From IMG/VR virus record IMGVR_UViG_2851938318_000001: a stretch of DNA of 64,000 nucleotides; one strand, 5' to 3'. Below are positions 4,588 to 58,815 of this stretch, in pieces. Under the pieces are notes generated by a model. It was not told the DNA's origin. It did not search any database and saw only the letters and a program-made list of their open reading frames with translations. This stretch comes from a virus (taxonomy: Duplodnaviria; Heunggongvirae; Uroviricota; Caudoviricetes). The translations under genes and the position numbers were made by a program. The stretch's first letter is position 1. Each line of letters opens with the position of its first letter.

Positions 4588-5337
4588 TTAATTAGATAGG
4601 GGATCAATAAACCGCCGTGCTTCTTCCAGTTCTTCTGGAAAGTGGGCGGAAATAAGGCGCTCTGGAACGATTTCCATTAGCCAGATAGCGGAGAAAATTG
4701 CGCGTATGCGCTTGCTGCGAGGGATGGTGCGCAAACGCTCCAGAATCCACTCAAAATAGCTTTCCTGAATCGGGTTGAACTGCATGTCTCCCATATGCTT
4801 AAAGCTAACAAGAGAGTCATCCAGACGGGTTGTTGCGCGTCTGGCTAATTTCTCTTCAAATATCTCAATCAGTTCTGGCTGCCACAAATGCTGTGGGCGC
4901 GGCAGCTTGTCCCACAGCCGTCGTGCAGCTGCGGAAAGAACGGTGGAGATAAAGTAGTCGTATGAGCAGCAATAGCGATCCGCAAACTGGCGTGCTTTCC
5001 ATAGCGACGTTTTATTGGCAGTCGACAACTCCTGATAAGGCAGGCGTTTTAACCCGGTGGTGAACGGAGCTGTTTCAAAGTGTTCGCGACCGTGCGTCAG
5101 CATGATATTTGAGTACTGACGTTTGTATGCCTCCGTAAAAAGACAGGTGGCCATGAGAGGATGCATGTCGCGGTAATCAAACCACTTCGTCTCGAAGAGT
5201 TCAGCCTCGTCTTTACAGCGCGACAAACCAATGTTTTCAGCGACCCACTTGTCCATAACAGCGGTATTCCACTCTGTCATGAAGTCGTACTGGTCGTTGT
5301 CGATGGTATCGAAAAAGATTTGGCTCATGTGGCTCAC
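4588..5337 (-). CDS. hypothetical protein of the replication module (possible initiator or helicase loader)
   Basis: 249-aa ORF immediately upstream of and co-oriented with the helicase gene; no recognisable motif. Confidence 0.4.
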   Translation of the reverse strand: MSHMSQIFFDTIDNDQYDFMTEWNTAVMDKWVAENIGLSRCKDEAELFETKWFDYRDMHPLMATCLFTEAYKRQYSNIMLTHGREHFETAPFTTGLKRLPYQELSTANKTSLWKARQFADRYCCSYDYFISTVLSAAARRLWDKLPRPQHLWQPELIEIFEEKLARRATTRLDDSLVSFKHMGDMQFNPIQESYFEWILERLRTIPRSKRIRAIFSAIWLMEIVPERLISAHFPEELEEARRFIDPLSN

Positions 5338-8847: not shown

Positions 8848-9089
8848 GTTCACAGATAAAACACTCTCCAGGAAACCCGGGGCGGTTCAATTGGCAATCA
8901 TAGCTTGTATTTGTCTGTTGAAAAAAGTAACAATGACCTCTATATTACAAGTACGGTGATATGCCGTACACAATTTGATAATGCACACGTAATGGGCTAT
9001 AGCCTTTTAAAGTAATTTTTGAGTCGAAAACTCAGTTTGAACAGAGGAGATTGATGGCCTTCCTACATCACGGCCATCAGGAGGAATAC

Positions 9090-9359: not shown

Positions 9360-9366
9360 TTTACTC

Positions 9367-9888: not shown

Positions 9889-10056
9889 TGTGTTCCCCTC
9901 ATTTGAGGGGAACTTCGACATCACCAACCACAAACCCTCTCTCCCATCGTATTGTGAAAAAGGATTTGGCGTTCGGTTTCTTCAGTCATTACATCATTAT
10001 TGCTGATATAGATAGGCTCAGCCCCATCGCAGAACAACACGCTGGCTGTTTGTGGT

Positions 10057-39711: not shown

Positions 39712-40602
39712 TTATGCCGGTAAAGCAATTTCTAACGGTTTATCCAAAGGTTGTTTGTCGAATGCCAGCAGTGGCAGCGTGTCAGGCAGTCGACGACCAA
39801 AGTCAGGGTTTCGATACACACCATACAACGGAGACGTAAAGCTCAGGTTGTGAATGTCCTTGAGCAGCTTCACAATGCTGGCCTCGTCCACCAGACTGTC
39901 GGCAATGTCCTGAATCGTCGTGCCACGATTCCGCCCAGCTTTTGCCAGGGAACTGTTCTTGTGGTAGTCCGCCACCAGATCACGCAGTGCACGGCGACGA
40001 CGTGACTCGCTCATTGCGAACAACTCTTTGACGATCGCCTCGTTATCACCCGGGTCGGAGCGGAAATGGCGCTGGAACACACGCAGTGCACTTTCATAGC
40101 TCTTCGGTCGCTCAGGGCGGATGAACTTGAACCCTGCTTTCATGGCGAAGGGATTGTATTTGCTCATCGAGGATTGGATCTCAATGATTGGCCGGTCATG
40201 CATCCTGCTAACCAGGTTAATCATTCGATAAGAGACGCCTACGCCACGGTACTGAGTATCCACAACTGAGCGGCTGATCACCGCAAAGTTGTTATTCACG
40301 TACCGGCCCCAGTACTGGTTAGCCACGGTGGTATTGGTGGTTGGTTTCAACTTAGGAAACATGCGATGGCGAGGTGCCAGCAGAAGTTTCGGGTAAGCCA
40401 TAACCACGACGCCCACCAGACGGTCATCCAGTTCGCAGCGATAGTATGTTGGCGCGAAAGGTTTGCCGTCTGTTTTGTAGTGAAGCGACTTAAGAGCGTG
40501 CCAGTCCTCTACAGTTCCCTTTGTGACAGTCATTCGCTCCAGAAAGTCCAGATGACGCGGAAACTCTTCAGGGCGGTAGCGTTTAATGATGATGTCCGTC
40601 AT
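39712..40602 (-). CDS. GNAT-like protein (putative acyltransferase fold)
   Basis: 296 aa; motif ISRSVVDTQYRGVGVSYRMINL resembles the GNAT acyl-CoA loop; start overlaps the ATPase stop by 4 nt. Confidence 0.35.
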   Translation of the reverse strand: MTDIIIKRYRPEEFPRHLDFLERMTVTKGTVEDWHALKSLHYKTDGKPFAPTYYRCELDDRLVGVVVMAYPKLLLAPRHRMFPKLKPTTNTTVANQYWGRYVNNNFAVISRSVVDTQYRGVGVSYRMINLVSRMHDRPIIEIQSSMSKYNPFAMKAGFKFIRPERPKSYESALRVFQRHFRSDPGDNEAIVKELFAMSESRRRRALRDLVADYHKNSSLAKAGRNRGTTIQDIADSLVDEASIVKLLKDIHNLSFTSPLYGVYRNPDFGRRLPDTLPLLAFDKQPLDKPLEIALPA

Positions 40603-41264
40603 GAATGGACCTCATCATAACTACCATTGTGATATTCCACCTTCACGCGTTCTTTGTAGTGCTTGGTGATCTGCATATCCGGGCGCAGCGCGTTCTTCAG
40701 GTCTTCGTGAGTCGTCGCCACCATTACCGTCGCACCAACCTTTCGAGCGGCACGCTGGAGGTTAGATGCCACAACCTGAGCGGTTACACGGTCTAGAACA
40801 GCACCGAACTCGTCAGCAGCCCACACTTTAGCGCCTGACTCAATCAGTTTGGCAATCTTGAGACGATATTTCTGACCGTCTGACATTTCAGAAGGCTTGC
40901 GAACAAACAGATATGCATCGTTCAGACCAGCCATAGATAACAACCCAAGCGCATCGCTGGTCGTTTTGCCCAACTGATCGATGACGTTAACCTCATTATC
41001 GAAGGTAAAATCATCGATGGAGGCTACAGACAGCCCTTCATCCTTCATCTGGCGTTGCAGCTCGCGCAACACAACGGATTTACCTGAACCGGATTGGCCG
41101 GTGATGTACACCACATCGCCCTGCTTCACTTCCAGCTCCAGATTGTCGTAAAGCGTCCACTCTTTTTCGTCCAGGCCAAGCCCGAACGACTCAGCGATTT
41201 CCAACGTGCGCGTGGTTTTATTTACGCGTGTCTGAAACGATACGTTGATGATGTATTTACTCAT
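40599..41264 (-). CDS. ABC-type P-loop ATPase (stand-alone)
   Basis: 221 aa; Walker A GQSGSGKS, signature-like MSDGQKYRL, Walker B VWAADEF, H-loop TTHE. Confidence 0.65.
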   Translation of the reverse strand: MSKYIINVSFQTRVNKTTRTLEIAESFGLGLDEKEWTLYDNLELEVKQGDVVYITGQSGSGKSVVLRELQRQMKDEGLSVASIDDFTFDNEVNVIDQLGKTTSDALGLLSMAGLNDAYLFVRKPSEMSDGQKYRLKIAKLIESGAKVWAADEFGAVLDRVTAQVVASNLQRAARKVGATVMVATTHEDLKNALRPDMQITKHYKERVKVEYHNGSYDEVHS

Positions 41265-41929
41265 GCAGCCATCTCCCCGGAAGAGATCTTCTCCGCATAT
41301 GCCACAAATGCGTCTACCCCGCTTTCTCCCGTCATTTCTTCCATATGGGCAAGCAAATCACCAACAACAATGGCAGAGCCAGCAGGGAGCGTTTTAAAGC
41401 CCAATACGTCGACAACACGTACTTCTTCCGCTGCAACTTCACGACTGATCTCGGTGTGTTCATCCTTCTGTCGTTTAGTTTCTTCGCCAAGATCGATAAC
41501 TAGCGAGTCGGTGTCCATTTCTTCTGTCATACTGCCAACGAGAACATTCAACTCACGCTCTTCAAAGCCGAAAACCTCGATATCGTCCAGAACAAGCGAC
41601 TCAAGCTCTTTCTGTAGCTTAATTGCATCGTAATCAATGCTGGCAAGTCGGTTATCTTCAAGGCGCTTCGCACGAACCTCGTCATCACTGAGATCATCGC
41701 GAACAATAACCGGTACGCGCTCAAGTCCAGCAAAAATTGCAGCCTCACGGCGGCCGTGGCCAGTAATAATTACGTCGTTCTTATCGACCGTAATTGGCTG
41801 GTCAAATCCGCGCTTTTTAATGGCTGCGGCCAGATCTCGGATCTGCTGTTCATCATGCTTTTTGGCATTCATCTCATAGGGAATAAGATCTGCCGGGTCG
41901 CGATATACGATTTCAAACTTTTTGGTCAT
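41261..41929 (-). CDS. ParB/Srx-domain protein 1
   Basis: ParB box-II-like ITGHGRREAAIFAG; start taken at Met 41929, sharing one nt with the upstream stop. Confidence 0.65.
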   Translation of the reverse strand: MTKKFEIVYRDPADLIPYEMNAKKHDEQQIRDLAAAIKKRGFDQPITVDKNDVIITGHGRREAAIFAGLERVPVIVRDDLSDDEVRAKRLEDNRLASIDYDAIKLQKELESLVLDDIEVFGFEERELNVLVGSMTEEMDTDSLVIDLGEETKRQKDEHTEISREVAAEEVRVVDVLGFKTLPAGSAIVVGDLLAHMEEMTGESGVDAFVAYAEKISSGEMAA

Positions 41930-42627
41930 TACATACGCTCCTTGTAGTAGTCGACCAGCCACACCAGAGCCTCACCAGCGTTCTCCATTTCATTACCGGT
42001 GTTAATAGCCTGCTCTTTGATGATGTTTTTTATGGTTTCTGCAACACGATCTGACGCATCGAAAGTTACTTTGAAGCGCATGGTCTGATGTTCCGCCCCC
42101 ACACGTTCGGTTTTCTCTCGTTTGTCGGTATCGACAGGCTCATCACTACCACGAGACAACGCCTCCAGTGCTTCAAGGTCGATTGCCGCCTCTTTTGCTA
42201 AAACCATCGAGATTTCGTCGTCATACGGGGCGATTTCAGACAGTTGATAGTCAAGTTCTGACTGAATTTCTTCAATGAAGCGTTGCAATGCGATTTGGTC
42301 GTCTTCACCGTATCGCTCGTTGTCCACCAGTGACATCTGTTTAGCTACGACATCGCTAATTTTGCCCACAGAAAGCACCGGAACCGTTGAAATTCCTTGC
42401 TCAATAGCAGCACGCCAGCGATGTTCGCCGCCGAGGATTTCAAAAAATCCATCTTCAAGTTCACGAGCCAAAATTGGCTTAAAAAAGCCCAATTTTTCGA
42501 TAGAACCTTTCAGTTTTTCAAAATTCTGCGCACCAACCGAATTGGTGTTCCAGGTATTCGGGCGAAGGTTGGCAACATCAACCTGCAAAATCGTGATTTT
42601 TACATCCATTTTATTGCTACAATCCAC
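41929..42627 (-). CDS. ParB/Srx-domain protein 2
   Basis: 232 aa; ParB box-II-like ILGGEHRWRAAIEQGI; first gene of the operon; phage palindromic motif at 42627..42648. Confidence 0.65.
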   Translation of the reverse strand: MDCSNKMDVKITILQVDVANLRPNTWNTNSVGAQNFEKLKGSIEKLGFFKPILARELEDGFFEILGGEHRWRAAIEQGISTVPVLSVGKISDVVAKQMSLVDNERYGEDDQIALQRFIEEIQSELDYQLSEIAPYDDEISMVLAKEAAIDLEALEALSRGSDEPVDTDKREKTERVGAEHQTMRFKVTFDASDRVAETIKNIIKEQAINTGNEMENAGEALVWLVDYYKERM

Positions 42628-46452: not shown

Positions 46453-46974
46453 ATGGTTAAAGACATCACCTACGGCATACCGGCTGAAGTCTGGCCGCGA
46501 GACTACGAACATGCTGAAAACATACTTATGTTCTGGCGGAAGAACAACATTCCTGTAAGAGTCACGCTTGAAGACGGTCAGGTGTTTTGCATGTACGTTC
46601 AGGGGACAATGCCTTCCCGCAATAAGCTAGATTTATGCCCGCTTCCATATGATAAAGAAAATCGTATAAGACTCCCACTTGAGCGCATTAGCACAATTGA
46701 ATCAGGTGTAATCGATGGCATTGCTCGCGAGTTCAAAGGTAGGCTAACAATACATCCAGACTATGTTGACAATCAGCCATCACGCCGTGACTTTTTTGCG
46801 ATATGTCGCAAGGCTTATCAAAACGACCAATCTATAAGGGTCTACATGGCAGACGGTCGTGAAATAGAAGGGGTGTCAAGAGGCGTTGATGCTTGCCAGG
46901 TCACTCTTAAGTTAGAAGACGGCAGAAAAATACTTGTTTTCTTCGATTGGGTTGAACGAATCCTTCCTTTTTAA
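46453..46974 (+). CDS. hypothetical protein with an internally duplicated domain
   Basis: 173 aa; two similar halves (IPVRVTLEDGQVF / IRVYMADGREIEGV). Confidence 0.4.
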   Translation: MVKDITYGIPAEVWPRDYEHAENILMFWRKNNIPVRVTLEDGQVFCMYVQGTMPSRNKLDLCPLPYDKENRIRLPLERISTIESGVIDGIAREFKGRLTIHPDYVDNQPSRRDFFAICRKAYQNDQSIRVYMADGREIEGVSRGVDACQVTLKLEDGRKILVFFDWVERILPF

Positions 46975-47269
46975 ATCTATAAGGGTAATAACCGGCTAAG
47001 TCCGGTTATTATTTTACATGCCATTCATTTAAAACTCTTTCAATGCTACGCTGTATAAATATATAAGGTTAAAAGCCTGAATTGATTATTTATTTAGGGA
47101 ACACCTTCGACGATCTCGCTTTTATTTCTAGGACTTTCATCCCTGCAAAAAATTTAAAAAAAACACTTGCAATCTTTTTTCACGTATCGATAATTGAACT
47201 CGTCGAAAGCGAGCTAGCTAACGACAGTAAAAAATAAATTCATTTTAATTTTTCGTAAGGATGTCCATC

Positions 47270-47920
47270 ATGGCTAACATTATCATTTCTAAAAAATCCA
47301 TCATTGAAGCTGCTTCCATTGTATCCGATGAACTGCGCGAAAAAGCAGATCTGGCAACTCAAACATATAACGAACATTATAAAAATGGTACGCACACTAA
47401 AGCAGACAAAGCAAATATGCAAGCTGCGACCACTAAACTTGCTTACTTCATCAACAACGTTGTAAACGCTGTTGAAGACGAAAAATTATGCTCTGTTTTC
47501 TACTATGCAATTAAAGCAAGCAAACAAGCGCCAGAAGTATTTTTCCGTGATGCAATGACTAATAGTTATTCACTGGAAAAACTGGTTTATCTGGTTAAAT
47601 CCATTAAAGCTGGTAAATGTGTTTATTCCGTCGCTGATATGTCAGGATCTCGTGTATTCGCTTTAATCGATATGATTAACGACGAGATCGACACGTTCAC
47701 CAATGGCGCTGTTTTCGATTTAATGAATGAAGCTAAAAAAGCGTGTGAAATTAAATTGGACGCTGGATATACTCAAGCCAACCAGTTGATCAATCTTTGC
47801 GAACGTCTCGGACTTGTTGAAAAAGTCAAAGGAGCTGGGAGCGCCAAAGCTGGTACGCAGCAATATCGCTTCATTAAAAATGATTTCTACAATTATTTAG
47901 CTGATGCTTTCAAAGCGTAA
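47270..47920 (+). CDS. hypothetical protein
   Basis: Start placed at second ATG (47270), 9 nt after TAAGGA; hairpin gcgcccactttgggcgc follows the stop. Confidence 0.4.
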   Translation: MANIIISKKSIIEAASIVSDELREKADLATQTYNEHYKNGTHTKADKANMQAATTKLAYFINNVVNAVEDEKLCSVFYYAIKASKQAPEVFFRDAMTNSYSLEKLVYLVKSIKAGKCVYSVADMSGSRVFALIDMINDEIDTFTNGAVFDLMNEAKKACEIKLDAGYTQANQLINLCERLGLVEKVKGAGSAKAGTQQYRFIKNDFYNYLADAFKA

Positions 47921-47942: not shown

Positions 47943-48173
47943 TTGGGCGCTTTAAAGGAGCTTTCAAAAATGGTCAGCTATGACAAGATCCGCGCGGAAT
48001 ATCGCGCAAAGTATCGCGCTTATAAACTGGAATTAATCGATGATTTGATCGCGCAACGCGACCAATTAAATTTTACGTTTTCTGATTTGCTTAACAGTAA
48101 ACGAGATTGTAAGCGTAAACGTGAATATTTACGTTTAAGCGCATTAATCGGAAAACTGCAAAATTCTATTTAA
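47943..48173 (+). CDS. hypothetical small basic protein
   Basis: 76-aa ORF, Arg/Lys-rich. Confidence 0.35.
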   Translation: MGALKELSKMVSYDKIRAEYRAKYRAYKLELIDDLIAQRDQLNFTFSDLLNSKRDCKRKREYLRLSALIGKLQNSI

Positions 48174-48193
48174 TTTTTTTAAGGAGCTTAATC

Positions 48194-48421
48194 ATGGTTA
48201 TTTTCATCTCTGGCGTAAATATCAATAATCATACTCTTGTTTATGATATTGCTGGTTTAGCTGGATATGCTCTAAGTTCTGAAGTGGTTGATGAAACAAC
48301 GTTTAAAATAAACATCAATGACGTAGAACATAGAGCGCGCGTAGGAATCAATGAAGCTGATGTTACTTTAATGCTTCAAGAATTTTTAAACGCTGGCTTT
48401 AATATTCACTTAGAAAAATAA
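48194..48421 (+). CDS. hypothetical small protein
   Basis: 75-aa ORF followed by a strong terminator. Confidence 0.35.
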   Translation: MVIFISGVNINNHTLVYDIAGLAGYALSSEVVDETTFKININDVEHRARVGINEADVTLMLQEFLNAGFNIHLEK

Positions 48422-48428
48422 AAACAAT

Positions 48429-48453
48429 AGCGCCCACTATGGGCGCTTTTTTT
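48429..48453 (+). terminator. rho-independent terminator closing the plus-strand accessory genes
   Basis: Hairpin agcgcccactatgggcgct followed by a T7 run; a second hairpin cgcgccaatgatggcgcg plus T-run lies at about 48476..48500. Confidence 0.6.
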
Positions 48454-48736
48454 CGTTTCCAATACTCCCACCATAACGCGCCAATGATGGCGCGTTTTTT
48501 ATTGTCTTTAACTCACTCCAACAACATAAAAATAAGCACCAAAATAACGCCATAGACGCGCTTTTATATCCTTGCCAGTACATACCCATTACTTAACACA
48601 TTAACGCGCTTAAAACGCGTTATAGCGCATAGTTAATCATTGGCTTTTAGTCTTGCTATGTAATCCGCGTTTAATTGTCGGCGCGGATCGGCATTTTGTG
48701 TTGTTCTGTATCCGCTCGCGTATTATGTGCGCGTGA

Positions 48737-49020
48737 TTTTTCACATAATCACACCACTTAATCACGTATGTGATTACGCTACGAAAGAAATCTGGATGTC
48801 TCAGGCGACGAAAGTCATCATAATTTTCCCCGCTCGCCTGTCCGACAACCGCTGGTTGGATTCCACCAGCTTCCCGATGTTTTTTCTACACAAAGGCGAA
48901 TGCAGCCGTTTCCCGAAAAAATCCTGGCCGTTCCCCGTCGGCTCATGAATACGTTCCTCGCCGTTTCTGAAAATTTCCCTGCGGCAGCTGGTGGCTATAG
49001 AGAAAGGGCCGTTTCTGGCC
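48737..49020. repeat. iteron-like direct repeat cluster 1 with a DnaA-box-like site
   Basis: GCCGTT(T)CC cores at 48905, 48927, 48960 and 49008 (22-, 33-, 48-bp steps); TTTTTCACA at 48737..48745. Confidence 0.5.
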
Positions 49021-49030
49021 CTCTTCTCAG

Positions 49031-49513
49031 TTACACGCCATCAAGGATGTGGATGCGGTTGCTTGCGTATACATTCAGCATAAAGTTAGCGCAAAACAGT
49101 TTCCATGTGTCAACGCCAGCGGTATACGTAATATTTTTGCATTTAATTGCATTGTTGGCGATCCGCATCCCCTGCGATACTGCTTCATCGTCGGAAAATT
49201 TGAACGACGATTGAGTTTTAATCCAGACAGAAATCTGCGTAGCGAACTCAATCAGCTTGGACTGGCAGAATCGCCCGGAGCGCACCGGAAAGACGAACGT
49301 TCCGAATCCAGAATTTACCACATACGCTTTCTCAAATACCCGCGAGTAACGACGATTACCAATGATGTCACGTGCAATAATGCATTTTTCTTGTGCTGAC
49401 AGTTCTACCGTCTCATTGTCGCGCCATGCACCAAGTACTCGTTTTTCAATGTCAGAGAACGTTACAGCGATATTGCCATGTGCGGGTGCGTTTACAGTAG
49501 CGATAAAATTCAT
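49031..49513 (-). CDS. hypothetical protein (early small-gene array)
   Basis: 160-aa ORF; conserved AAACAA-N-TTGTTTTCTT element at 49535..49570 upstream. Confidence 0.45.
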   Translation of the reverse strand: MNFIATVNAPAHGNIAVTFSDIEKRVLGAWRDNETVELSAQEKCIIARDIIGNRRYSRVFEKAYVVNSGFGTFVFPVRSGRFCQSKLIEFATQISVWIKTQSSFKFSDDEAVSQGMRIANNAIKCKNITYTAGVDTWKLFCANFMLNVYASNRIHILDGV

Positions 49514-49717
49514 GATTAATTCCTTATCGTAAATAACAAATTGTTTTCTTGTTGTTGTTAATTATCGCTGTACGAATAAGGCGTCAAAGTTGAAAACTAC
49601 GGTAGCCGGACGGGAACAGGTGGGTTTGTCGGTTGCCTGGAGGTAAGAGGTTGGTGTTTTTAGCCTGCGGGAAACAAGATGGTCATTTAAGGCCACCAGC
49701 ATTGGTGGCCTTATTCT

Positions 49718-49999
49718 TTAGTGGAGTAGAGCGATGTCGATGGTATCCCCTGAATCATCCACACGGATCATCAGCATGGCGAAGGCGTTTAGTGGATAAC
49801 TGGCGTGCCATTCAGGGAAGCGGTCATCTCGCATGAAGTCAGCAATGTCGTAAACGCAGCCCTCAAAGTGGAAGAATCGCGTGCTTACCTGCTCGTCATA
49901 ATCCACATGATCCATTTCTTGCTGTTCTGTTTCCGGCAAGTCCAGCCATGATTCGAGGAATACATTTTGTGCTTTGGTGGTAATGGTGAAATCAGTCAT
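49718..49999 (-). CDS. hypothetical small protein (array member)
   Basis: Start at second Met (49999), 7 nt after AGGA; N-terminal 19 codons lie in a 57-bp repeat shared with 50482..50540. Confidence 0.45.
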   Translation of the reverse strand: MTDFTITTKAQNVFLESWLDLPETEQQEMDHVDYDEQVSTRFFHFEGCVYDIADFMRDDRFPEWHASYPLNAFAMLMIRVDDSGDTIDIALLH

Positions 50000-50191
50000 G
50001 AGCATATCCTAACTGCGTAAACATGTTGTTTTCTTGTTGGTGTAATTATCGCAGTGTAGATAAGGCATAAAAGAAGTTAATACAGGCTGAATACGCAAGA
50101 AAGGTTCTGGAAGTTGATAGCTAGGTTTCAAACTAACCTTCGGTTATTAAAAGTCATTTAAGGCCACCAGCGTTAACTGGTGGCCTATATC

Positions 50192-50455
50192 TCATTGCTT
50201 TCGATGTGCTGCAACGAACTCTTTCAACGTTTCTAGCGCATGATAAAGACCGACGATATTTGAGCCGTAGTCGATGCAAACAGGGGAAAGTGATGTCTTC
50301 CCGTCGTGCGATGAATATGCCGATGTGGTAGTTGCAGGGTAATCGTGGCGATAGCAAACCGCAGTTTTTGGGTGTCGCAGATACGCTATCCCTCTTTCAA
50401 GATCATAAATTGCGCGTCGCAGGTCATGCTCCTGCGCTCTGGTCAATTTTGCCAT
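50192..50455 (-). CDS. hypothetical small protein (array member)
   Basis: About 87 aa from Met 50455. Confidence 0.4.
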   Translation of the reverse strand: MAKLTRAQEHDLRRAIYDLERGIAYLRHPKTAVCYRHDYPATTTSAYSSHDGKTSLSPVCIDYGSNIVGLYHALETLKEFVAAHRKQ

Positions 50456-50469
50456 CGTAATACTCTCAC

Positions 50470-50730
50470 TTAATGCGGCAAAGCCAGCCATGATTCGAGG
50501 AATACATTTTGTGCTTTTGGGGTAATGGTGAAATCAGTCATCGTGCCCCCCATCTCCTGCAACTGTGCAACGGTGATATCTGGACACAGCCCGTCGATCC
50601 ACACCCACACGTCAATGATGCTGTCACCGGCTTCAAAATGGTGAAATGCGCGCTCAAGCTGCTGATTGTTATCCACAGGCTCATTTGCTAGCTGCGCCCA
50701 GATTTGCTGGACTTGAGTAATAGTTTTCAT
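50470..50730 (-). CDS. hypothetical small protein, apparently chimeric
   Basis: 86 aa; last 24 codons (TMTDFTITPKAQNVFLESWLALPH) are a copy of the N-terminus of the 49718..49999 product; SD AGAGGA upstream. Confidence 0.45.
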   Translation of the reverse strand: MKTITQVQQIWAQLANEPVDNNQQLERAFHHFEAGDSIIDVWVWIDGLCPDITVAQLQEMGGTMTDFTITPKAQNVFLESWLALPH

Positions 50731-50843
50731 CTGCTTTCCTCTTGTTTTCTTGTTGTTGTAATTATCGAAGTTTAGATAAGGCAGAAAATAAATTGTTATC
50801 GGGCATAAGAAAATGGCGCGGTTTACGCGCCATTCAAAGAGGA

Positions 50844-51239
50844 TTAAGCGAATACGCTTTCAGGGATTAAGGTGTCGGCAGGAATGCCAGAGGTAATGCG
50901 CAGGCCGTACTGACCAATCCAGGTGGTGCTGGTGTTCAGGCTGGAGGTGAATACGGAATTAACCATACTCATCATGGTTTCAAACACCTCTTCATCAACC
51001 TGGCGGAAGTAGTTCTCGATTTTCAGCAGCAGTGGGTCAGTTGCATCGAGAATGGACTGGTATTGAGTCGCGTACTCGCCGCCGGAGGCATCACCTTTAC
51101 GCACGATCGTACTGGCCTGGACTTCGGCACCAGTTTCGGTGTTGTACGTAACAACGGTGATTTTTGCCACATTCTTACCTTCGGCAGTTTCAGAGGCATA
51201 GTAAACATCAACTGTCAGTTTTTCGCGTTTAACGGTCAT
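50844..51239 (-). CDS. hypothetical protein
   Basis: 131-aa ORF; palindromic motif gtaggtatgtacttac at 51283..51298 upstream. Confidence 0.4.
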   Translation of the reverse strand: MTVKREKLTVDVYYASETAEGKNVAKITVVTYNTETGAEVQASTIVRKGDASGGEYATQYQSILDATDPLLLKIENYFRQVDEEVFETMMSMVNSVFTSSLNTSTTWIGQYGLRITSGIPADTLIPESVFA

Positions 51240-51365
51240 TTCACTCTCCGTAGTGTATTGGTTATTTTTCTATTTTATAGTCGTAGGTATGTACTTACAA
51301 TACAAAAAAGCCCCGTAAGGATGGCGGGGCTGTCGTACTGTCGACTAATTACCACTTGCACATTA

Positions 51366-51707
51366 TCAGGCTATTGCCATCACTGATGCTCTCTGAATTT
51401 CTTGCTGGGCCACGCGGTTAACTTCCATCAAAGCCAGTTCGAGCTGATGTTCCGGCCACATTCTTTGAAATGCCACCCAGCCTTTTCCACGCTGGCGGCG
51501 AACATTCATTACATAACGAGTAAAGGTGTTTTTATCGAAAGACACCGCGGTTTCACGGAACAGACGAATAGAGGTTCCATTGGCAACGATGTCCAGCAAA
51601 GTTAATTGAGCAACCAGTGCAGGCTTCTCTTTTCTCTTCTGGTCTTTGTCCAGACCAAGAACCAATGATTTTTTCATCACAACTCCGTAAACAACTTGTT
51701 TTCTCAA
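51366..51707 (-). CDS. hypothetical basic protein
   Basis: 113-aa ORF; conserved upstream element at about 51700..51720. Confidence 0.35.
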   Translation of the reverse strand: MRKQVVYGVVMKKSLVLGLDKDQKRKEKPALVAQLTLLDIVANGTSIRLFRETAVSFDKNTFTRYVMNVRRQRGKGWVAFQRMWPEHQLELALMEVNRVAQQEIQRASVMAIA

Positions 51708-51830
51708 TGGCGTAAATAATACCAGTAAGAAAACGGCTACAAAGCATATTGATCAGGTGCATGAGCGATATGCAGGTTCTTCCCTGCGGCTACAGATTAA
51801 GTTAAGCCAGCAATGCTGGCTTAGATTGGT

Positions 51831-52181
51831 TTACGCGAATACCTCAAGAAACTCCTGAACGTCCCAATGCTGGACGAGGTGAAGATAGACCTTAGAAATC
51901 ACGTCATTCTCGCTATCGCATGTGAAGTAGTACTTCTGGCTGCGGTTGTATGTGTCCACACAAAATTCGCTCATATCCATAAAGTCAGCATCTTCACCCA
52001 GGTCGCAAATCATCAAAGCAGGTGCGTCATCACGAGTCATCAGCTCAAGCACCCACCGCGAATTGATCAGAGTGGAAGACCAACCTTCTAACTCATAAAA
52101 CTGATCAAACTCTTTTTGAGTTAATTTCTTGATTTGGTTGATGTCGATATGTGCAAACATAAAGCAATCCTTAAACAACAT
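51831..52181 (-). CDS. hypothetical acidic protein
   Basis: 116-aa ORF; conserved upstream element at 52176..52210. Confidence 0.4.
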   Translation of the reverse strand: MLFKDCFMFAHIDINQIKKLTQKEFDQFYELEGWSSTLINSRWVLELMTRDDAPALMICDLGEDADFMDMSEFCVDTYNRSQKYYFTCDSENDVISKVYLHLVQHWDVQEFLEVFA

Positions 52182-52334
52182 GTTTTCTTGTTGGTGTTAT
52201 TATCGTAATAACGCACAGGCGAAAAAGGATTTTATTCCGGTGAATGTGGTTTTGGCAGTGAGTTTTCAGGTTCAGTACCGAGTACACTTTTTACATTATT
52301 CTGATTTAGTGGCCGAAGGTGGCTGGTGGACAGA

Positions 52335-52652
52335 ATAATCCTCTCCCCGAAAACCTACTGAAATCGATTGTGACCCGCTGACTGTCTGGCACAATTACGC
52401 TGTAGCTGGGCATTCAGAGGGAATCCAGCGGTAAGCAAGTCCGCCTGCACGTGAGCGCCTCTCTTCTTCCCGCACATTGCAGGTGGGTAGCCGCAACTCT
52501 CCCTCTCGCTATACCGGTACGCCGCCGTTCCTGAACCGGCATTGAGCCTTTTCCCGAAATCCACACAGGCAACTCGACCGTTTCCCTGAAAACCTCCAGC
52601 CGTTCCCAAAGGCAACCCAGCCGTTTCTGTAGCGGGATGCAGCCTTTCCCCT
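52335..52652. repeat. iteron-like direct repeat cluster 2
   Basis: GCCGTT/GCCTTT cores at 52524, 52546, 52578, 52599, 52620 and 52642 (mostly 21-22-bp steps); related ctccccgaaaacc at 52335. Confidence 0.55.
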
Positions 52653-52789
52653 GTATGGACCGAAGGCTGACCGTAGGGGTGTTACGGGGGATAAAATCAG
52701 GAGTTGAATAAATACGAAAAAGGAGGCGACCCCCCTCCTTCCCTCCCCACTTATACATACCTGGCTTCTTCGCTATACATGTTGTGTTT

Positions 52790-53560
52790 TCTTCGTGTTT
52801 TATCTGTCTCAACCTCTCTATAGGCGTTAATGCTCACACCTTCCAGAACGTTCTATACGGCGACTAATTCTGTTGGTGAATTGGGTGTGTTGTTCTCTCT
52901 GTCGGTGTAAATGGTTTCGTTAGTTTTGCGGTGGTTCTTCTGTGGGATGTTCTCGTCGTTTTGGTGATTGTTCTTCTCCGTGTATGGAGTAAAGGCAGGT
53001 GGGCGATTCCTTTCGTTATTGTGTTTGAGTTGTTTGTCTGGAGTGTGTGAAGGGCTTTTGTAGTTATTCGTGTATTGGGTAATGGCGTTTCCCGTGATTG
53101 TTATGTTTCGTGTCTTTTGGGATTGAGAGAATCCTTGCGGTTACAGGCTTCGTTGGGGTTTCAGTGATTCTGGTGTTTCTTCGCTGTTTGGGTAATGGCG
53201 TGTCGTGGGTATCGCGCGTATGGAAGTTTCGAATTGCCTGTGAAAGTTAGGTTGGTTGTCCGGTAGCCTGCCATAAAGAGGTTGGTTGTTTTTGGAATGG
53301 CATATGTGTTATTTGGTTGTTTTGTTATACCTGAAAATAAGTTGTTTATATGGTTGTGTAACGCAACGGGAGCGATTTTGAGCGTGTGTTTTTGTTGGTA
53401 GTGTGTTTGGTCGTCTGTGGTGAAAATTGGACGCTGTGGCGCTGTCTGCTGCGTAGAATTACGGGTATAAGCAGTGATGTGTGAAAACGTCAATTTTTTA
53501 GACCAAATCGGGTGAAAGCGTTGATGTTTCGTTGATCTGTTATTCAGTTGTTTTCTTATT
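52790..53560. other. ORF-free GT-skewed tract (candidate non-coding RNA or origin-associated region)
   Basis: About 770 bp rich in G and T on the plus strand with short degenerate repeats (gggtaatggcgt twice; ggttggttgt several times); bounded by upstream-element-like sequences at 52787..52815 and 53536..53560. Confidence 0.4.
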
Positions 53561-53690
53561 GGTATAAACAACTATAACCTATTGATATTTAAGGATGTGA
53601 TTGCAGGTATAGAATGGGGGTAGTGGCGATCAACGGATTCTTATAGAAAAGAATCAAATTGTGACCGCCATTATCAATGAGTTGCAACCG

Positions 53691-54260
53691 TTAGTTGTTC
53701 AGATAAACATTTGGAACACGGACGTAGAAGTTCCTGTCGCCGGTAAGTTCCAGAGTAATGTTAATGTCATTACCATTGTCTAGTGTAGCCGTTGCTCTAT
53801 AGAACTTATCCGTCACCTTGTCCTCTATTGTCACCTTCATACATTTTGGTGCAGTCGAACCGTTATTCTCTTTCAGAATAGTTGTCACGAGAGGGCAGGC
53901 TGCTTCTTCAAGAGCAACCTCGTCCTTGTGTGGGATGCCGATGAAGATAACCCAAGCCAGCGACGCAACGATTATGATAAATGGCACTCTGCTGCCTTTT
54001 GTAATAGTCGCGCGCTTCCAGAGATAGACAGGCAGGAGGAATACCCCCCATAGAATTGAAGGTGGTTCACAGCCAGACTCCGATAGAGCCATTCTGTCAG
54101 CTACTAACAAACCGATGGTAGTTACACCCCCAATTATAATAGCGTAATTGGTATACTCTTCCGGCGATACTCCAAAGAAGAAAGGCATGAACGCTAGAAT
54201 CCACGCATAAATGTTATTCAGAGGTTTTGTTTGTTGGTTCTGGGTTTCCATCACATCCAT
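53691..54260 (-). CDS. hypothetical membrane protein
   Basis: 189 aa; about four predicted TM helices then a soluble C-terminal domain. Confidence 0.45.
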   Translation of the reverse strand: MDVMETQNQQTKPLNNIYAWILAFMPFFFGVSPEEYTNYAIIIGGVTTIGLLVADRMALSESGCEPPSILWGVFLLPVYLWKRATITKGSRVPFIIIVASLAWVIFIGIPHKDEVALEEAACPLVTTILKENNGSTAPKCMKVTIEDKVTDKFYRATATLDNGNDINITLELTGDRNFYVRVPNVYLNN

Positions 54261-54413
54261 TCCATCACATAAAAATCGCGTTTATATATTATCAATTTTC
54301 TCACTTGTATAACCTAAATACGCATCCGTTTATCAATCCACCTTCCACAAACATCAGCTTTAGCTATGAAAAATAACAATCTCAAAGTGAAAACCATTAT
54401 CATAGGATAACGA

Positions 54414-54599
54414 TTAGATGAGATGGTCTAATTCATCATCTATCATTGCTTTAACACTTGAGTCATTAACCCCGTATTGATTTATGAACCGTTTCAGCTC
54501 CGGTGAAAACTGAAGGTAGATATCGTGAGCGTTTTTCACTGTAGGTTCAACGCCACGCATTTCAAGCGCCTTTAGTAGATATGAGTCTTCTTTAAGCAT
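54414..54599 (-). CDS. hypothetical small protein
   Basis: 61-aa ORF. Confidence 0.3.
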   Translation of the reverse strand: MLKEDSYLLKALEMRGVEPTVKNAHDIYLQFSPELKRFINQYGVNDSSVKAMIDDELDHLI

Positions 54600-54635: not shown

Positions 54636-54944
54636 TTACCATTGCCAGCACTCTAGCCCTTCAACGACCGGTGCACCACAATCAAAATGTACAGAGTCAA
54701 AGCCTACATCAAGTACTTTCTGAATGTTCGCAATCGCGCCCTCGGATATACCATATCGACGCAACTCATCTTTCCAGTCATCGTCCTGTAACCCAGCGTG
54801 GACAATGCAACCGTACTCAATTTGTGAAACCCAATCCAGCTCATTGCTTGCGATCATGAATCGGCGAGCATCTTCCTCTGATGTATGAGATGAGCTGATC
54901 AATGCCACCTGGTAGGCTTGGGTAATGTTCAACATTTCAACCAC
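54636..54944 (-). CDS. hypothetical small acidic protein
   Basis: 102-aa ORF; conserved upstream element at 54950..55010. Confidence 0.4.
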   Translation of the reverse strand: MVEMLNITQAYQVALISSSHTSEEDARRFMIASNELDWVSQIEYGCIVHAGLQDDDWKDELRRYGISEGAIANIQKVLDVGFDSVHFDCGAPVVEGLECWQW

Positions 54945-55096: not shown

Positions 55097-57130
55097 TTAC
55101 TTAACCTGGTGGCCAGGTTTAGCACCAGCATCCGGGCTTAACAGGAAGATATCTTTCCCGCCGGGGCCAGCAGCCATCACCATGCCTTCAGAGATACCGA
55201 AGCGCATTTTACGTGGTGCCAGGTTAGCCACCATAATGGTGTGACGACCAATCAGTGCCTGTGGATCTGGATAAGCGGAACGGATGCCTGAGAAGACATT
55301 ACGCTTTTCACCACCGAGATCCAGCGTCAGGCGAAGCAGTTTGTCAGAACCTTCTACAAACTCTGCGTTTTCAATCAGCGCCACGCGCAGGTCAACTTTG
55401 GCGAAGTCGTCAAAGGTGATAGTTTCCTGAATCGGGTCGTCAGCCAGTGGGCCAGTTACCGGTGCGGCTGTGGCTTTCACTTCTTCTTTGGATGCTTCCA
55501 CCAGTGCTTCAACCTGCTTCATATCGATGCGGTTATACAGTGCCTTGAACGGATTCACTTTATGGCCCAGCAGCGGTTGCTGGATACCATCCCAGGTCAG
55601 TTCTGTATTCAGGAATGCTTCTGCACGTTCAGTCAGTTTCGGCAGTACCGGCTTCAGGTACGTCATCAGCACGCGGAACAGGTTAATGCCCATAGAGCAA
55701 ATCGCCTGCAGATCGGCATCGCGTCCTTCCTGCTTCGCCACCACCCACGGAGCCTGTTCATCGACATAGCGGTTAGCCAGGTCAGCCAATGCCATGATTT
55801 CACGGATAGCTTTACCAAATTCGCGGCTTTCCCACGCTTCACCAATCACTTCAGCGGCATCAGTGAAGGTTTTGTACAACTGCGGGTCAGCCAATTCGCT
55901 TGCCAGCACGCCGTCAAAACGCTTGTTGATAAAGCCCGCATTACGAGAGGCCAGGTTAACCACTTTGTTCACGATATCGGCATTCACGCGCTGAACGAAA
56001 TCCTCCAGGTTGAGATCGATATCATCAATGCGCGAAGAGAGTTTCGCAGTGTAGTAGTAACGCAGGCTGTCGGCGTCAAAATGATTCAGCCAGGTGCTGG
56101 CTTTAATAAAGGTGCCGCGAGACTTGGACATCTTCGCGCCGTTCACCGTCACATAGCCGTGAACAAACAGGTTGGTCGGCTTGCGGAAGTTGCTGCCTTC
56201 CAGCATGGCAGGCCAGAACAGGCTGTGGAAGTAAACAATATCTTTACCGATGAAGTGGTACAGCTCGGCGGTGGAGTCTTTCTTCCAGTATTCATCGAAG
56301 CTGGAGGTGTCGCCGCGTTTGTCGCACAGATTCTTGAAGGAACCCATGTAGCCAATCGGCGCGTCCAGCCAGACGTAGAAATATTTGCCCGGTGCGTTCG
56401 GAATTTCAAAACCGAAGTACGGCGCATCGCGGGAGATATCCCACTGTTGCAGACCAGATTCAAACCACTCCTGCATTTTGTTTGCCACCTGCTCCTGCAA
56501 CGCACCGCTGCGGGTCCATGCCTGCAACATTTCGCTGAAAGAAGGCAGATCAAAGAAGAAGTGTTCGGAATCACGCATTACCGGCGTAGCACCAGAAACT
56601 ACCGATTTCGGCTCGATCAGTTCAGTAGGGCTGTATGTCGCGCCGCAGACTTCACAGTTATCGCCGTATTGATCCGGCGCTTTACATTTCGGGCATGTGC
56701 CTTTCACAAAACGGTCCGGCAGGAACATGCCTTTTTCCGGGTCGTACAGCTGAGAGATGGTGCGGTTTTTAATAAAACCGTTCTCTTTCAGGCGAGTATA
56801 GATAAGCTCGGACAACTGACGGTTCTCTTCGCTGTGCGTCGAGTGATAGTTGTCATAGCTGATGTTAAAGCCTGCAAAATCAGTCTGGTGTTCCTGACTC
56901 ATTTCGCCAATCATCTGTTCCGGTGTGATACCAAGCTGCTGTGCTTTCAGCATGATCGGTGTGCCGTGGGCATCGTCGGCACAGATGAAATTAACCTCGT
57001 GGCCGCGCATTCGCTGGTAACGAACCCAGACATCAGCCTGGATGTGCTCCAGCATATGGCCGAGGTGGATTGAGCCGTTAGCGTACGGCAGCGCGCACGT
57101 CACCAGAATTTTCTTCGCGACTTGGGTCAT
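55097..57130 (-). CDS. metG: methionyl-tRNA synthetase
   Basis: 677 aa from [26 protein letters not shown] (HIGH motif), KMSKS motif present; the 720-aa track ORF has an N-terminal extension upstream of the real start. Confidence 0.95.
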
Positions 57131-57287
57131 AGTAGGCATTACTTCTTTGTAGTGAAAAGGGGCTTGATAGTAACAAAATGGCCTTATGTCTGCCATGTGA
57201 TAACAGCATTTCTCATAAATGATTAAATGCCGTAGCTGGAGTACACTACAAGGCGACAATTGCGCAAATTAAAATAAAGGAGACGGG

Positions 57288-58388
57288 ATGAGCGAGTCCA
57301 AATCGCCGGATGCCCTGAGAGCAATGGTAGCCGGTACGCTGGCTAATTTTCAGCACCCAACCCTGAAACACAATCTGACTACGCTTAAAGCGTTACACCA
57401 TGTTGCGTTGATGGATGACACACTGCATGTCGAACTAATCATGCCTTTCGTGTGGAATAAGCCTTTTGAAGACCTGAAAGAGCAATGTAGTGGTGATCTG
57501 CTCCGTATCACTGGCGCAAAGGCTATTGACTGGAAGCTGTCGTACAACATTGCCACGCTTAAGCGCGTCAAAAACCAACCAGGCATTAATGGCGTGAAGA
57601 ACATTATCGCCGTCAGCTCAGGCAAGGGCGGCGTTGGTAAATCCTCCACGGCGGTAAACCTGGCACTGGCGTTGGCTGCTGAAGGTGCGAAAGTTGGTAT
57701 TTTGGATGCCGATATCTACGGGCCATCAATTCCAACCATGCTTGGCGCGGAAAACCAACGTCCAACCTCACCGGACGGTACTCACATGGCACCGATTATG
57801 TCTCATGGACTGGCAACCAATTCAATTGGTTATCTGGTAACTGACGACAATGCGATGGTGTGGCGTGGTCCGATGGCGAGCAAGGCGTTAATGCAGATGT
57901 TGCAGGAAACTCTATGGCCTGATCTGGACTATCTCGTTCTCGATATGCCGCCGGGTACTGGTGATATTCAGCTGACGCTGGCGCAGAACATTCCTGTAAC
58001 TGGTGCTGTTGTGGTAACTACGCCGCAAGATATCGCGCTGATCGATGCGAAGAAAGGCATTGTGATGTTCGAAAAAGTCGAAGTGCCGGTACTGGGTATC
58101 GTCGAAAACATGAGTGTGCATATTTGCAGTAACTGCGGTCATCACGAGCCAATTTTTGGCACCGGTGGCGCACAGAAGCTGGCCGAGAAATACAACACGC
58201 AGTTGTTAGGCCAAATGCCACTTCATATCTCTCTTCGTGAAGATCTGGATAACGGAACACCAACCGTTATTAGTCGTCCAGATAGCGAATTTACGGCTAT
58301 TTATCGTGACCTCGCAGATCGCGTTGCTGCCCAAATGTATTGGCAAGGTGAAGTAATACCTGGCGAAATCGCATTCCGCGCAGTGTGA
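57288..58388 (+). CDS. apbC: iron-sulfur cluster carrier ATPase Mrp/ApbC
   Basis: 366 aa; deviant Walker A SGKGGVGKSS; CxxC near the C-terminus; divergent from metG as in E. coli. Confidence 0.9.
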   Translation: MSESKSPDALRAMVAGTLANFQHPTLKHNLTTLKALHHVALMDDTLHVELIMPFVWNKPFEDLKEQCSGDLLRITGAKAIDWKLSYNIATLKRVKNQPGINGVKNIIAVSSGKGGVGKSSTAVNLALALAAEGAKVGILDADIYGPSIPTMLGAENQRPTSPDGTHMAPIMSHGLATNSIGYLVTDDNAMVWRGPMASKALMQMLQETLWPDLDYLVLDMPPGTGDIQLTLAQNIPVTGAVVVTTPQDIALIDAKKGIVMFEKVEVPVLGIVENMSVHICSNCGHHEPIFGTGGAQKLAEKYNTQLLGQMPLHISLREDLDNGTPTVISRPDSEFTAIYRDLADRVAAQMYWQGEVIPGEIAFRAV

Positions 58389-58414
58389 TAAAAAGGTGGT
58401 GCAATGCACCACCT
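58389..58414 (-). terminator. rho-independent terminator after the UmuD'-like gene
   Basis: Hairpin aggtggtgca-t-tgcaccacct followed on the minus strand by TTTTTAT. Confidence 0.5.
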
Positions 58415-58425
58415 AAACAGTTCTC

Positions 58426-58815
58426 CTACATCACAGGACAATCATCAAACTCGCCACTTCTTGCGTCGTTGATAATGTGAGTGATCACACCAAACACGGC
58501 ATTGCTGCCCGTGCATCCATCATCATCCTTTGGCAATGCTTCCTTCTTACCAGTTCTTAAATCCTCCAGATGCTGACGTGGATACTTCCGGTATCTTTTT
58601 ACGCGATATTCCCCATCCAGAGCACATACAAGAAGAGATCCATCAACAGGAGTGAGTGAGGAATCGACCACCAGCAATGCACCCTGCAATATTCCCTCAC
58701 GATGATGGCTGTCTGCCGCCCTCATGAAGTAGGTCGCTGAAGGATGTCTAATTATCTGCTGATCAAGAGAAATACGGCTCTCAGCATAATCCGCCGCAGG
58801 AGAAGGGAAGCCCAT
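58426..58815 (-). CDS. UmuD'-like S24 peptidase-fold protein (lacks the N-terminal arm and Cys-Gly cleavage site)
   Basis: 129 aa starting MGFPSPAADY, matching the start of processed UmuD'; conserved Ser (AADS) and Lys (YRVKRY); in-frame TAA four codons upstream of the ATG; SD AGAGG. Confidence 0.65.
   Translation of the reverse strand: MGFPSPAADYAESRISLDQQIIRHPSATYFMRAADSHHREGILQGALLVVDSSLTPVDGSLLVCALDGEYRVKRYRKYPRQHLEDLRTGKKEALPKDDDGCTGSNAVFGVITHIINDARSGEFDDCPVM

Follow-up and report, generated by a model that had tools for sequence, protein, structure and literature searches.

Organization of the locus

The window analyzed here, a stretch of viral DNA of 64,000 nucleotides, belongs to an SSU5/pHCM2-type phage-plasmid. 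The E. coli plasmid pRM9131-1 (NZ_CP028430.1, 117,123 bp, IncFIB) served as reference; it is identical (100%) to the window over the 5-kb region studied and is read on the reverse strand, with record position = 98546 - x for window position x. The same region presents 93-97% identity with Escherichia phage Cyrano and other SSU5-type phage-plasmids. The annotation of pRM9131-1 lists head, tail and terminase genes (terminase genes at window positions 37349-39237), which marks it as a phage-plasmid, and replication-type genes for a DnaB-like helicase, a primase, a polymerase III alpha subunit, an RNase H, a ligase and a UvsW-like helicase. Additionally, the element encodes ParA and a small RHH-like partner protein of 119 aa (6431-7458). 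An earlier note on this DNA had found no obvious Rep gene in the window, correctly, as repA sits elsewhere on pRM9131-1 (record positions 1-1056).

Two clusters of short direct repeats are located at the edges of a variable island of small genes (Table 1). The PHROG matches of the island products belong to function-unknown families, and a weak Gp5.9-like match was seen near the island. Concerning the flanking DNA, the block directly right of cluster 1 holds a pyrimidine tract of 19 nt; there is also a terminator-like hairpin on its - strand (52741-52716), which is peculiar to this window. Since relatives do not keep this hairpin, the block is conserved at the sequence level. The strand-asymmetric DNA that follows has a GC skew of -0.22 and an AT skew of +0.32 (record orientation), and the skew recurs in 10 relatives despite diverged sequence. 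The noncoding zone on the far side of cluster 2 contains GTTATAGCG/GTTTTAGCG-type motifs and inverted repeats; the equivalent zone of a divergent relative (L093) bears some nine TTTAGC units in tandem, together with inverted repeats that contain GATC and a stretch of AT-rich DNA.

Table 1. Features of the repeat locus, in window coordinates.
Feature	Position	Strand	Remarks
219-aa protein gene (phrog_1513)	47261..47920	+	Best candidate binder; N-terminal helical hairpin, C-terminal winged helix (model)
Conserved noncoding zone	48430..48897	.	Between convergent terminators (48429-48496) and cluster 2
Cluster 2	48898..48976	+	Three same-orientation copies; core starts 48905, 48927, 48960 (steps 22, 33)
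Chi site GCTGGTGG	48987..48994	+	In cluster 2; conserved in relatives
Hairpin GGGCC gtttct GGCCC	49000..49028	.	Directly past stop codon of 160-aa gene
160-aa protein gene (phrog_1641)	49031..49513	-	Conserved; anchors cluster 2; last island gene
Variable small-gene island	49718..52181	-	Own promoter/5'UTR module and terminator per gene (repeat families D1-D4)
Chi site	52322..52329	+	About 200 bp to the left of cluster 1; kept in the lineages of E. coli, Salmonella and Klebsiella
Segment TCTCCCCGAAAACCTACTGAAATCG	52335..52362	+	Conserved; matches 3' half of motif only
Cluster 1	52517..52660	+	Six same-orientation copies of (C)CA-GCC(G/T)TTYCC-(T)GAAAA
Most conserved block of the locus	52665..52756	.	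GTTACGGGGGAT..TTGAAT..ACG..AAAGGAGGCGAC-CCCCTCCTTCCCTCCCCACTTATAC
Noncoding strand-asymmetric DNA, about 900 bp	52757..53690	.	+ strand G+T-rich, - strand C+A-rich

Anatomy of the two arrays

The recurring GCCGTT-type core claimed by the earlier note is real. Searched on both strands of the 64 kb, GCCGTTYCY gave 8 matches against 1.84 +/- 1.36 expected, a count reached by 0/100 shuffles, and seven of the eight are on the + strand, grouped in two clusters. The relaxed pattern RCCKTTYCY adds the copies at 52546, 52577 and 52642. Core starts in cluster 1 are therefore at 52524, 52546, 52577, 52599, 52620 and 52642, with steps of 22, 31, 22, 21 and 22; the copy previously placed at 52578 is the same one, but it starts at 52577 and its first base is A instead of G. 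Cluster 2 had been described as four copies, of which the three in Table 1 stand, while the fourth (49008) is doubtful. It forms the loop of the hairpin past the 160-aa gene, where a + strand pyrimidine tract follows, and it reads GGGGCGTTTCC in relatives; its place in a hairpin loop and its reading in relatives suggest that it is probably not a true site. In relatives the hairpin takes the form GGGGC gtttcca GCCCC with a T-run on the - strand and is terminator-like. Finally, the "related copy" proposed at 52335 has only the CCCCGAAAACC tail in common with the motif and belongs to a block that not all lineages conserve.

A position weight matrix was trained on nine motif copies, which score 15.8-23.2 bits (a test that is partly circular), and the best other site in the 117-kb plasmid reaches 13.8. 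The motif is confined to the two cluster loci in this plasmid. The array is absent from the output of Tandem Repeats Finder, because its units are too divergent beyond the core. Local alignment of cluster 2 with cluster 1 gave a score of 50 against 24.6 +/- 4.1 for shuffles; the counterpart of cluster 2 is copies 3-5 of cluster 1, and the similarity extends past the core. Each array is also preceded by a pyrimidine tract or hairpin ending in CTTA. On the alignment beyond the core and this shared leading element, we regard the two clusters as paralogous modules.

Conservation of the arrays among relatives

Through the neighboring 160-aa protein, 77 IMG/VR loci were collected, and 22 representatives were scanned for arrays. 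Both arrays were present, in the same orientation, in 22/22. With plasmids and contigs included, almost all SSU5/pHCM2/pKpn relatives examined carry both. The earlier note's description of two clusters in the same orientation that bracket the small-gene array was confirmed and holds in the relatives too. The region carries no annotation; the plasmids in which it is conserved number several hundred and come from Escherichia, Klebsiella, Enterobacter, Salmonella (including pHCM2), Citrobacter and Cronobacter. Where divergence is greatest among the relatives with arrays, the neighboring proteins are 51-63% identical, and the core is still GCCGTTTCC. The exceptions are pMT1, which is without cluster 1, and a rearranged Serratia contig without either cluster. 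An exact 16-mer scan of genome contigs returned scattered single chance matches only, in unrelated phyla, and was uninformative.

The placement of the arrays is equally constant. Wherever a relative has the 160-aa gene, cluster 2 lies 68-136 nt past its 3' end, and cluster 1 lies 1.3-4 kb beyond cluster 2, at a distance that tracks the number of intervening small genes (the island measures about 1.3 to 5 kb in the relatives). The six copies of cluster 1 persist, with steps of 22/31/22/22/22, in divergent lineages of about 67-77% nucleotide identity, and this spacing is kept in Salmonella, Klebsiella, Enterobacter and Citrobacter elements. Spacing is irregular in the most divergent relative (34, 18-24 and 28-34 bp), so that strict two-turn phasing is not universal. 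In an alignment of 48 distinct relatives the core columns are about 90-100% identical and the spacer columns 40-70%, and two variants (L014 and L039) have each lost exactly one repeat unit. Near-invariant cores, variable spacers and loss of whole units fit protein-binding sites and not decayed genes. Read from this pattern of substitution, the repeats are under selection as sites throughout the family.

Candidate binding proteins

Two proteins had been put forward earlier as possible binders, and neither gained support. The 160-aa product of 49031..49513 models well and has no significant fold match; the 249-aa product of 4588..5337 has no Pfam, NCBIfam or PDB match. The most likely predicted binder of the arrays is instead a 219-aa protein, whose gene is located about 1 kb from cluster 2. 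It is among the most conserved proteins of the neighborhood (83-86% identity across genera). Its AlphaFold model (pLDDT 87) combines a long N-terminal helical hairpin, forming a coiled coil, with a C-terminal winged helix, and the recognition helix and wing do not vary in the family even where overall identity falls to 53%, just as the DNA core does not vary.

Foldseek matches of the model were generic winged helices with E-values that are not significant. They include the Cdc6/ORC winged helix, TubR and RTP, the last with high probability and, again, an E-value that is not significant. Many winged-helix relatives are transcription factors. The family profile gave zero matches among PDB sequences, and no Rep-family match was found for the protein. 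In one Klebsiella contig (L094), a single case, the 219-aa gene is frameshifted and copies 2 and 3 of cluster 2 are degraded. The rearranged Serratia contig encodes a 63%-identical homologue, yet has no motif within 10 kb.

Between genera whose element proteins have diverged to about 51% the core does not vary, an observation that would fit a conserved host factor too. The motif resembles LytTR-type (YpdB/BtsR) sites, Cra/PurR half-sites and sigma-32/sigma-E elements in part only, and no identity with any of them is claimed.

Coding potential, RNA and transcription

Compared with the 97%-identical Cyrano, the window has a 1-nt indel inside the CDS that Cyrano annotates over cluster 1, and for this reason the array region is read as noncoding. 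The ORFs over cluster 1 (52414-52812, 52355-52615 and Cyrano CYRAN_104) were rejected as genes because of 1-nt and 10-nt indels between close relatives, the 21-22-nt units and the absence of a PGAP gene call there. In RNA-seq of LF82, a Cyrano lysogen, CYRAN_104 (the repeats) and CYRAN_103 (the skewed region) are near or at the detection floor, and the Cyrano homologue of the 219-aa gene is also near the floor (PMC9928086 S1 Table). An Rfam search of both strands over 48000-54500, with E up to 1, left the clusters without a match and returned only sub-threshold ones, namely terminators at 48415-48503 and a weak one at 54345-54411. Folding of 52500-52760 as single-strand DNA or RNA gave z-scores of 0.13, -0.68 and -0.58, shuffles being equally good. 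A structured RNA or sRNA sponge was rejected on the missing Rfam match, the ordinary fold and the near-floor expression in the lysogen.

These results also bear on the proposal that the repeats have no function as sites, being either the decayed 3' end of a duplicated gene, an alternative that the earlier note had set against its own reading, or a structured RNA or single-strand DNA element. The modules are paralogous, each stands after a stop-codon-like CTTA and pyrimidine tract, and the GGA-rich repeats of the - strand superficially resemble CsrB-type sponges. The periodic purifying selection on the cores over wide divergence, which distinguishes them from their spacers, argues against decay, and the RNA version conflicts with the Rfam, folding and expression results; we consider the proposal extremely unlikely.

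As transcriptional control sites, the clusters would form an array of operator, activator or roadblock type and would switch or insulate island expression. Each array is located at an island edge and, followed in the sense in which the island is transcribed, comes right after a terminator-like element; winged-helix proteins of the kind encoded nearby are often transcription factors. However, cluster 1 is about 270 bp away from the closest promoter-like site (52258-52229), and no conserved promoter was seen right of either array in the relatives compared. The island promoters carry a different sequence, the palindromic operator AAACAAnTTGTTT, which has 12 copies against 0.31 expected and is found at every island promoter and also at par, helicase and terminase-region promoters. 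The "regulator binding array" of the earlier note thus survives in the broad sense of a possible protein-binding array, but not as the operator of the island promoters, and control of the island by the arrays seems improbable.

Relation to replication origins

The plasmid origin lies elsewhere. Both flanks of repA carry classical 21-bp iterons (ATCCACTATAGAGAG; record 116581-117081 and 1055-1323), and the region upstream of repA has TTATCCACA-type DnaA boxes and AGATCC/GATC-rich repeats. By its sequence the repA region is a RepFIB/P1-type origin; it spans record positions of about 116450-1340, outside the window and some 46-49 kb from the clusters, and its iterons share no similarity with the cluster motif GCCGTTTCC. 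Furthermore, Y. pestis pMT1, which has the same replicon type and is plasmid-maintained, keeps cluster 2 and has lost cluster 1 in an IS1541-associated rearrangement. As repA, its iterons and its DnaA boxes are elsewhere and unrelated, the arrays, judged on these sequence comparisons, are not the origin of plasmid replication. The idea that they are a RepA-bound vegetative origin or copy-control iterons draws on a general iteron-like look only and is effectively refuted.

Other origin hallmarks were sought at the clusters. The pattern TTWTNCACA occurs 5 times against 6.66 expected, i.e., at chance level; the DnaA-box-like TTTTTCACA noted earlier at 48737 belongs to this background and is not conserved in relatives. 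No IHF consensus was found inside or beside either cluster, the only matches over 48300-53800 being at 52134, 53587 and 53672, and a GATC scan revealed no origin hallmark at the clusters. A duplex-stability scan of the window and relatives detected no unwinding element beside the clusters: the least stable 60-mers are at the 86th-98th percentile, the one near cluster 2 being 350 bp off (97th percentile), with none at cluster 1. Cumulative GC and AT skews of the whole plasmid track the direction of transcription and contain no origin signal. An AT-rich palindrome at 5435-5499, just upstream of the helicase/primase operon, reaches the 99.97th percentile of instability.

A second, RepA-independent origin used in lytic growth would be a special case of protein-bound arrays, with the repeats as iterons for a phage initiator. 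Cluster 2 and the conserved noncoding zone at 48430-48900 would be the origin proper and cluster 1 a distant cis enhancer; P4 ori/crr and SPP1 oriL/oriR are precedents for an origin with a distant cis element. The anatomy is iteron-like, and the winged-helix gene, less than 1 kb away and silent in the lysogen, has Cdc6/ORC-like folds among its matches. The element has its own helicase, primase, polymerase III alpha, RNase H, ligase and UvsW-like helicase, and the tandem TTTAGC units, GATC inverted repeats and AT-rich stretch of L093 would suit an origin. Against this weigh the missing unwinding element beside both clusters, the unconserved DnaA-like box at chance level, the lack of IHF sites, the silent skews and a distance of 43 kb to the helicase/primase operon, whose own palindrome is a much better candidate. 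A lytic origin, or origin-enhancer pair, is unlikely on this balance, and it is nevertheless the leading one among the specific functional readings. Of the iteron and origin interpretation given earlier, then, the phased same-orientation iteron-like repeats selected as sites remain, but the repA origin is elsewhere and the hallmarks are missing.

Protein-bound boundary modules as the preferred reading

We tentatively favor, with somewhat less than even confidence, the view that the clusters are binding arrays for one sequence-specific protein, likely the 219-aa protein, and that they act in the lytic phase as paralogous boundary modules at the island edges. The binding-array reading was adopted because of the cooperative-array anatomy, i.e., an asymmetric core in one orientation, 6 + 3 copies, gain and loss of units and two loci. 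Each island edge would have one boundary module, in which a pyrimidine tract or hairpin precedes an array. The putative binding sites are asymmetric, point in one direction and are spaced two or three helical turns apart, and on account of this direction and spacing a bound protein would be aligned on one DNA face and could oligomerize along the array. A protein present on both arrays could bridge the two island edges. The binder would be the element's own winged-helix/coiled-coil 219-aa protein and, given the silence of its gene in the lysogen, the arrays would serve infection or lytic growth and not plasmid maintenance. Candidate roles of the bound arrays are those of a nucleoprotein element in the lytic phase, an enhancer or second origin, and a packaging boundary.

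The last of these roles was considered as an explanation in its own right, in which the repeats are sites for terminase or an accessory protein that bound a terminal repeat or a pac/cos region, and the island enters the cell first. Its models would be the first-step-transfer region of T5, with the injection stop signal, and the repeat arrays on the flanks of the T7 terminal repeat. The large terminase is about 25% identical over 91% to T5-like phage terminases, an identity that is not predictive of packaging mode. The inner boundary of the T5 terminal repeat has about 1.7 kb of noncoding DNA, same-orientation repeat families and a GC-skew patch. The island genes are small and individually promoted, with the weak Gp5.9-like match nearby, and the two conserved Chi sites, both on the + strand, would be oriented towards a DNA end right of cluster 1. 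On the other hand, the terminase genes are 10-14 kb from the clusters (though ends of the T5/T7 type do not call for proximity), no phage record of this family begins or finishes at the clusters, and contig ends in the 77 IMG/VR loci accumulate at the host-like metG only. A packaging or genome-end signal is accordingly rated as distinctly unlikely.

A partition centromere, serving either the element's ParA with its small partner or a winged-helix adaptor of the TubR kind, must also be weighed. Type Ib and type III centromeres are typically direct-repeat arrays, the par operon of SSU5 has no adjoining repeat array, and TubR is among the fold matches of the 219-aa protein. Nevertheless, more than 41 kb separates the arrays from the par genes, the gene of the winged-helix candidate is silent in the lysogen, the state that requires partition, and pMT1 has lost cluster 1 (cluster 2 being kept). 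The palindromic operator at the par promoter, which is all that the region upstream of the operon carries, would be a more natural site for the RHH-like partner, and a centromere is judged very unlikely.

Finally, a bolder extension of the preferred reading would make the paired arrays and the 219-aa protein the dedicated boundary system of a recombination-prone island of early genes, either as a polar barrier to replication or transcription or as a DNA loop that aids cassette exchange together with Chi, or as a T5-like stop signal. We offer it as a speculation of low probability. In such a boundary system the Chi sites belong to the island terminators and flanks; in the T5-like stop variant the island enters and is expressed ahead of the remaining genome.

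Significance

Elements of the SSU5/pHCM2/pKpn/pMT1 group carry resistance genes and are frequent in E. coli, Klebsiella, Salmonella Typhi and Yersinia pestis, and hardly any study has addressed their lytic replication, packaging or early gene control. A family-wide cis element defined together with a named candidate binder offers a concrete entry point. The present analysis also corrects a mis-annotation, as the repeats are not a plasmid origin and several records place spurious CDSs over them. If the arrays do form the boundary system of an island that is variable and probably anti-defence, this would be a new organizing principle for phage accessory regions.

Comparison with known systems

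The closest likeness in anatomy is to iterons, such as those of P1/RepFIB oriR, R6K, RK2 oriV, lambda ori, P4 ori and crr, and SPP1 oriL/oriR. These share with the present arrays asymmetric cores of 13-18 bp, one orientation at about two helical turns, multiple copies with gain and loss of whole units, two clusters kilobases apart and a winged-helix gene nearby. In contrast to them, the arrays described here are without an adjacent AT-rich unwinding element, conserved DnaA or IHF sites and a recognizable Rep-family protein. Moreover, the plasmid's real RepA iterons differ in sequence and place, and cluster 1 is dispensable for pMT1 replication. The centromeres of TubR/tubC, ParR/parC and ParG/parH resemble the locus in two direct-repeat clusters, which would be coated cooperatively, and in the TubR fold match. 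They differ in that our arrays are away from the partition genes, with no linked matching motor protein, and in that the candidate binder is unexpressed in the lysogen.

Concerning genome ends, the T5 injection stop and terminal-repeat boundary and the flanking arrays of T7 are alike in having at least 1 kb of noncoding DNA, same-orientation repeats, skew and an adjoining block of small early genes, and the large terminases are distantly related. However, there is no sequence homology, no ends of SSU5-type genomes were seen at this locus, and two arrays stand against one boundary. RTP/Ter of B. subtilis and Tus/Ter are alike in a winged helix with a long dimerizing helix and in asymmetric same-orientation sites, but known Ter has one or two sites as opposed to an array of six, and the Ter consensus is absent here.

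These repeats are undescribed in the searchable literature, full text of phage-plasmid papers included. A phased direct-repeat binding array is a well-known kind of element; what is new here is the motif, its occurrence as a pair of arrays on either side of a variable island, the lack of origin and centromere hallmarks, and the protein put forward as binder.

Operator-Like Palindromes, Chi Sites and the par Operon

Apart from the repeat clusters, which are same-orientation GCCGTTYCY arrays, the window carries two further dispersed motifs. The first one is the palindrome AAACAAnTTGTTT, present in 12 copies in the window when up to one mismatch is allowed (expectation 0.31). Copies of it are found at, or just 3' of, the promoters of the small genes of the island (the variable block between the two clusters), of the par operon, of the helicase gene and of the terminase region. 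The palindrome has the look of a global repressor's operator; another possibility is an arrangement like that of phage N15, in which the small ParA partner has dispersed sites. The ParA partner encoded here weakly matches an RHH-type regulator family (aCcr1, E-value = 2e-4), which fits a type Ib centromere-binding protein. In this plasmid, the upstream region of the par operon is interrupted by an IS1203 copy at ~7580.

The second motif is Chi (GCTGGTGG), which is enriched about ninefold window-wide (13 copies against 1.4 expected), with 9 of the 13 copies on the - strand. Two of the 13 lie within terminator hairpins that separate island cassettes; two others, both conserved and on the + strand, are found next to the repeat clusters.

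Positions of the features described, in window coordinates
Feature	Position	Strand	Remarks
17-bp inverted repeat	5435-5499		Around a very AT-rich core
ParA partner	6431-6790	-	119 aa
ParB_N-domain proteins (two in tandem), then ABC-type ATPase	41261-42627 and 40599-41264	-	
FljA family protein	46453-46974	+	PF03614, repressor of phase-1 flagellin; full-length, E = 5e-81
Strand-asymmetric noncoding DNA	52757-53690		~900 bp, extreme asymmetry
61-aa protein	54414-54599	-	Weak, sub-threshold match to T7 Gp5.9 RecBCD inhibitor (E = 0.006)
DUF5983 protein	54636-54944	-	Neighbour of the 61-aa protein
metG	55097-57259		Full methionyl-tRNA synthetase gene
ApbC/Mrp-like gene (apbC-like)	57417-58517		
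AAACAAnTTGTTT palindromes	4564, 7494, 39278, 39303, 49534, 50019, 51689, 52173, 53335, 54949, 55000, 62790		
Chi, examples	48863, 49693, 50164	-	
Chi, examples	48987, 52322	+	

Surroundings of Cluster 2 and a Lytic-Origin Candidate

In the most divergent relative (L093), TTTAGC(C/A) is repeated in tandem about nine times in the zone that separates cluster 2 from the convergent terminators (8740-8990, corresponding to about 48500-48850 of the window); this zone also has inverted repeats containing GATC and a stretch rich in AT. The matching zone of the window has scattered GTTATAGCG/AACGCGC motifs. These repeats beside cluster 2 constitute a second repeat system distinct from the clusters. In the Klebsiella contig L094, the 219-aa winged-helix gene has a frameshifted homologue (9323-9975), and copies 2 and 3 of cluster 2 (8530-8605) have one and three core mismatches, respectively. 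Gene and sites may have degenerated together in this single case.

As a candidate for the lytic origin, the 17-bp inverted repeat looks better than the repeat clusters, for which the earlier note had suggested a role as replication origin or regulator binding array. Its duplex instability is at the 99.97th percentile of the window, and it sits in a divergent promoter region, upstream of an operon encoding the 249-aa protein, a DnaB-like helicase and a primase.

Neighboring Genes

The FljA-family gene is kept in all relatives and, unlike its neighboring genes, is expressed in the lysogen of Cyrano, an SSU5-type Escherichia phage; through it, the phage-plasmid may switch off host flagellin. The ParB_N/ParB_N/ATPase trio, located between the UvsW-like helicase and terminase genes, is also kept in all relatives and may serve in partition, packaging or DNA modification. 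The 61-aa protein and the DUF5983 protein fit an early anti-defense neighborhood. Concerning metG, five independent IMG/VR contigs break exactly at its stop codon, and a single metagenome supplied four of these; the chromosomal metG paralogue is the probable cause.

Strand-Asymmetric Noncoding DNA and Comparison with T5

On the + strand of the noncoding stretch, GC skew rises to +0.45 and AT skew falls to -0.5, a property kept in 10 relatives despite diverged sequence. The CDS annotated in the equivalent stretch of Cyrano is at the RNA-seq floor. If transcribed from the - strand, the stretch would yield a long untranslated RNA, rich in C and poor in G, resembling a Rho-loading site. A useful comparator for repeat-rich noncoding DNA adjoining early genes is the injection-stop/terminal-repeat boundary of phage T5 (L100, 9140-10950), where seven TGTGCAAATCCGA copies straddle the repeat end, a 23-nt unit occurs five times at steps of 23-46 bp, and one patch has a GC skew of +0.45 to +0.49.
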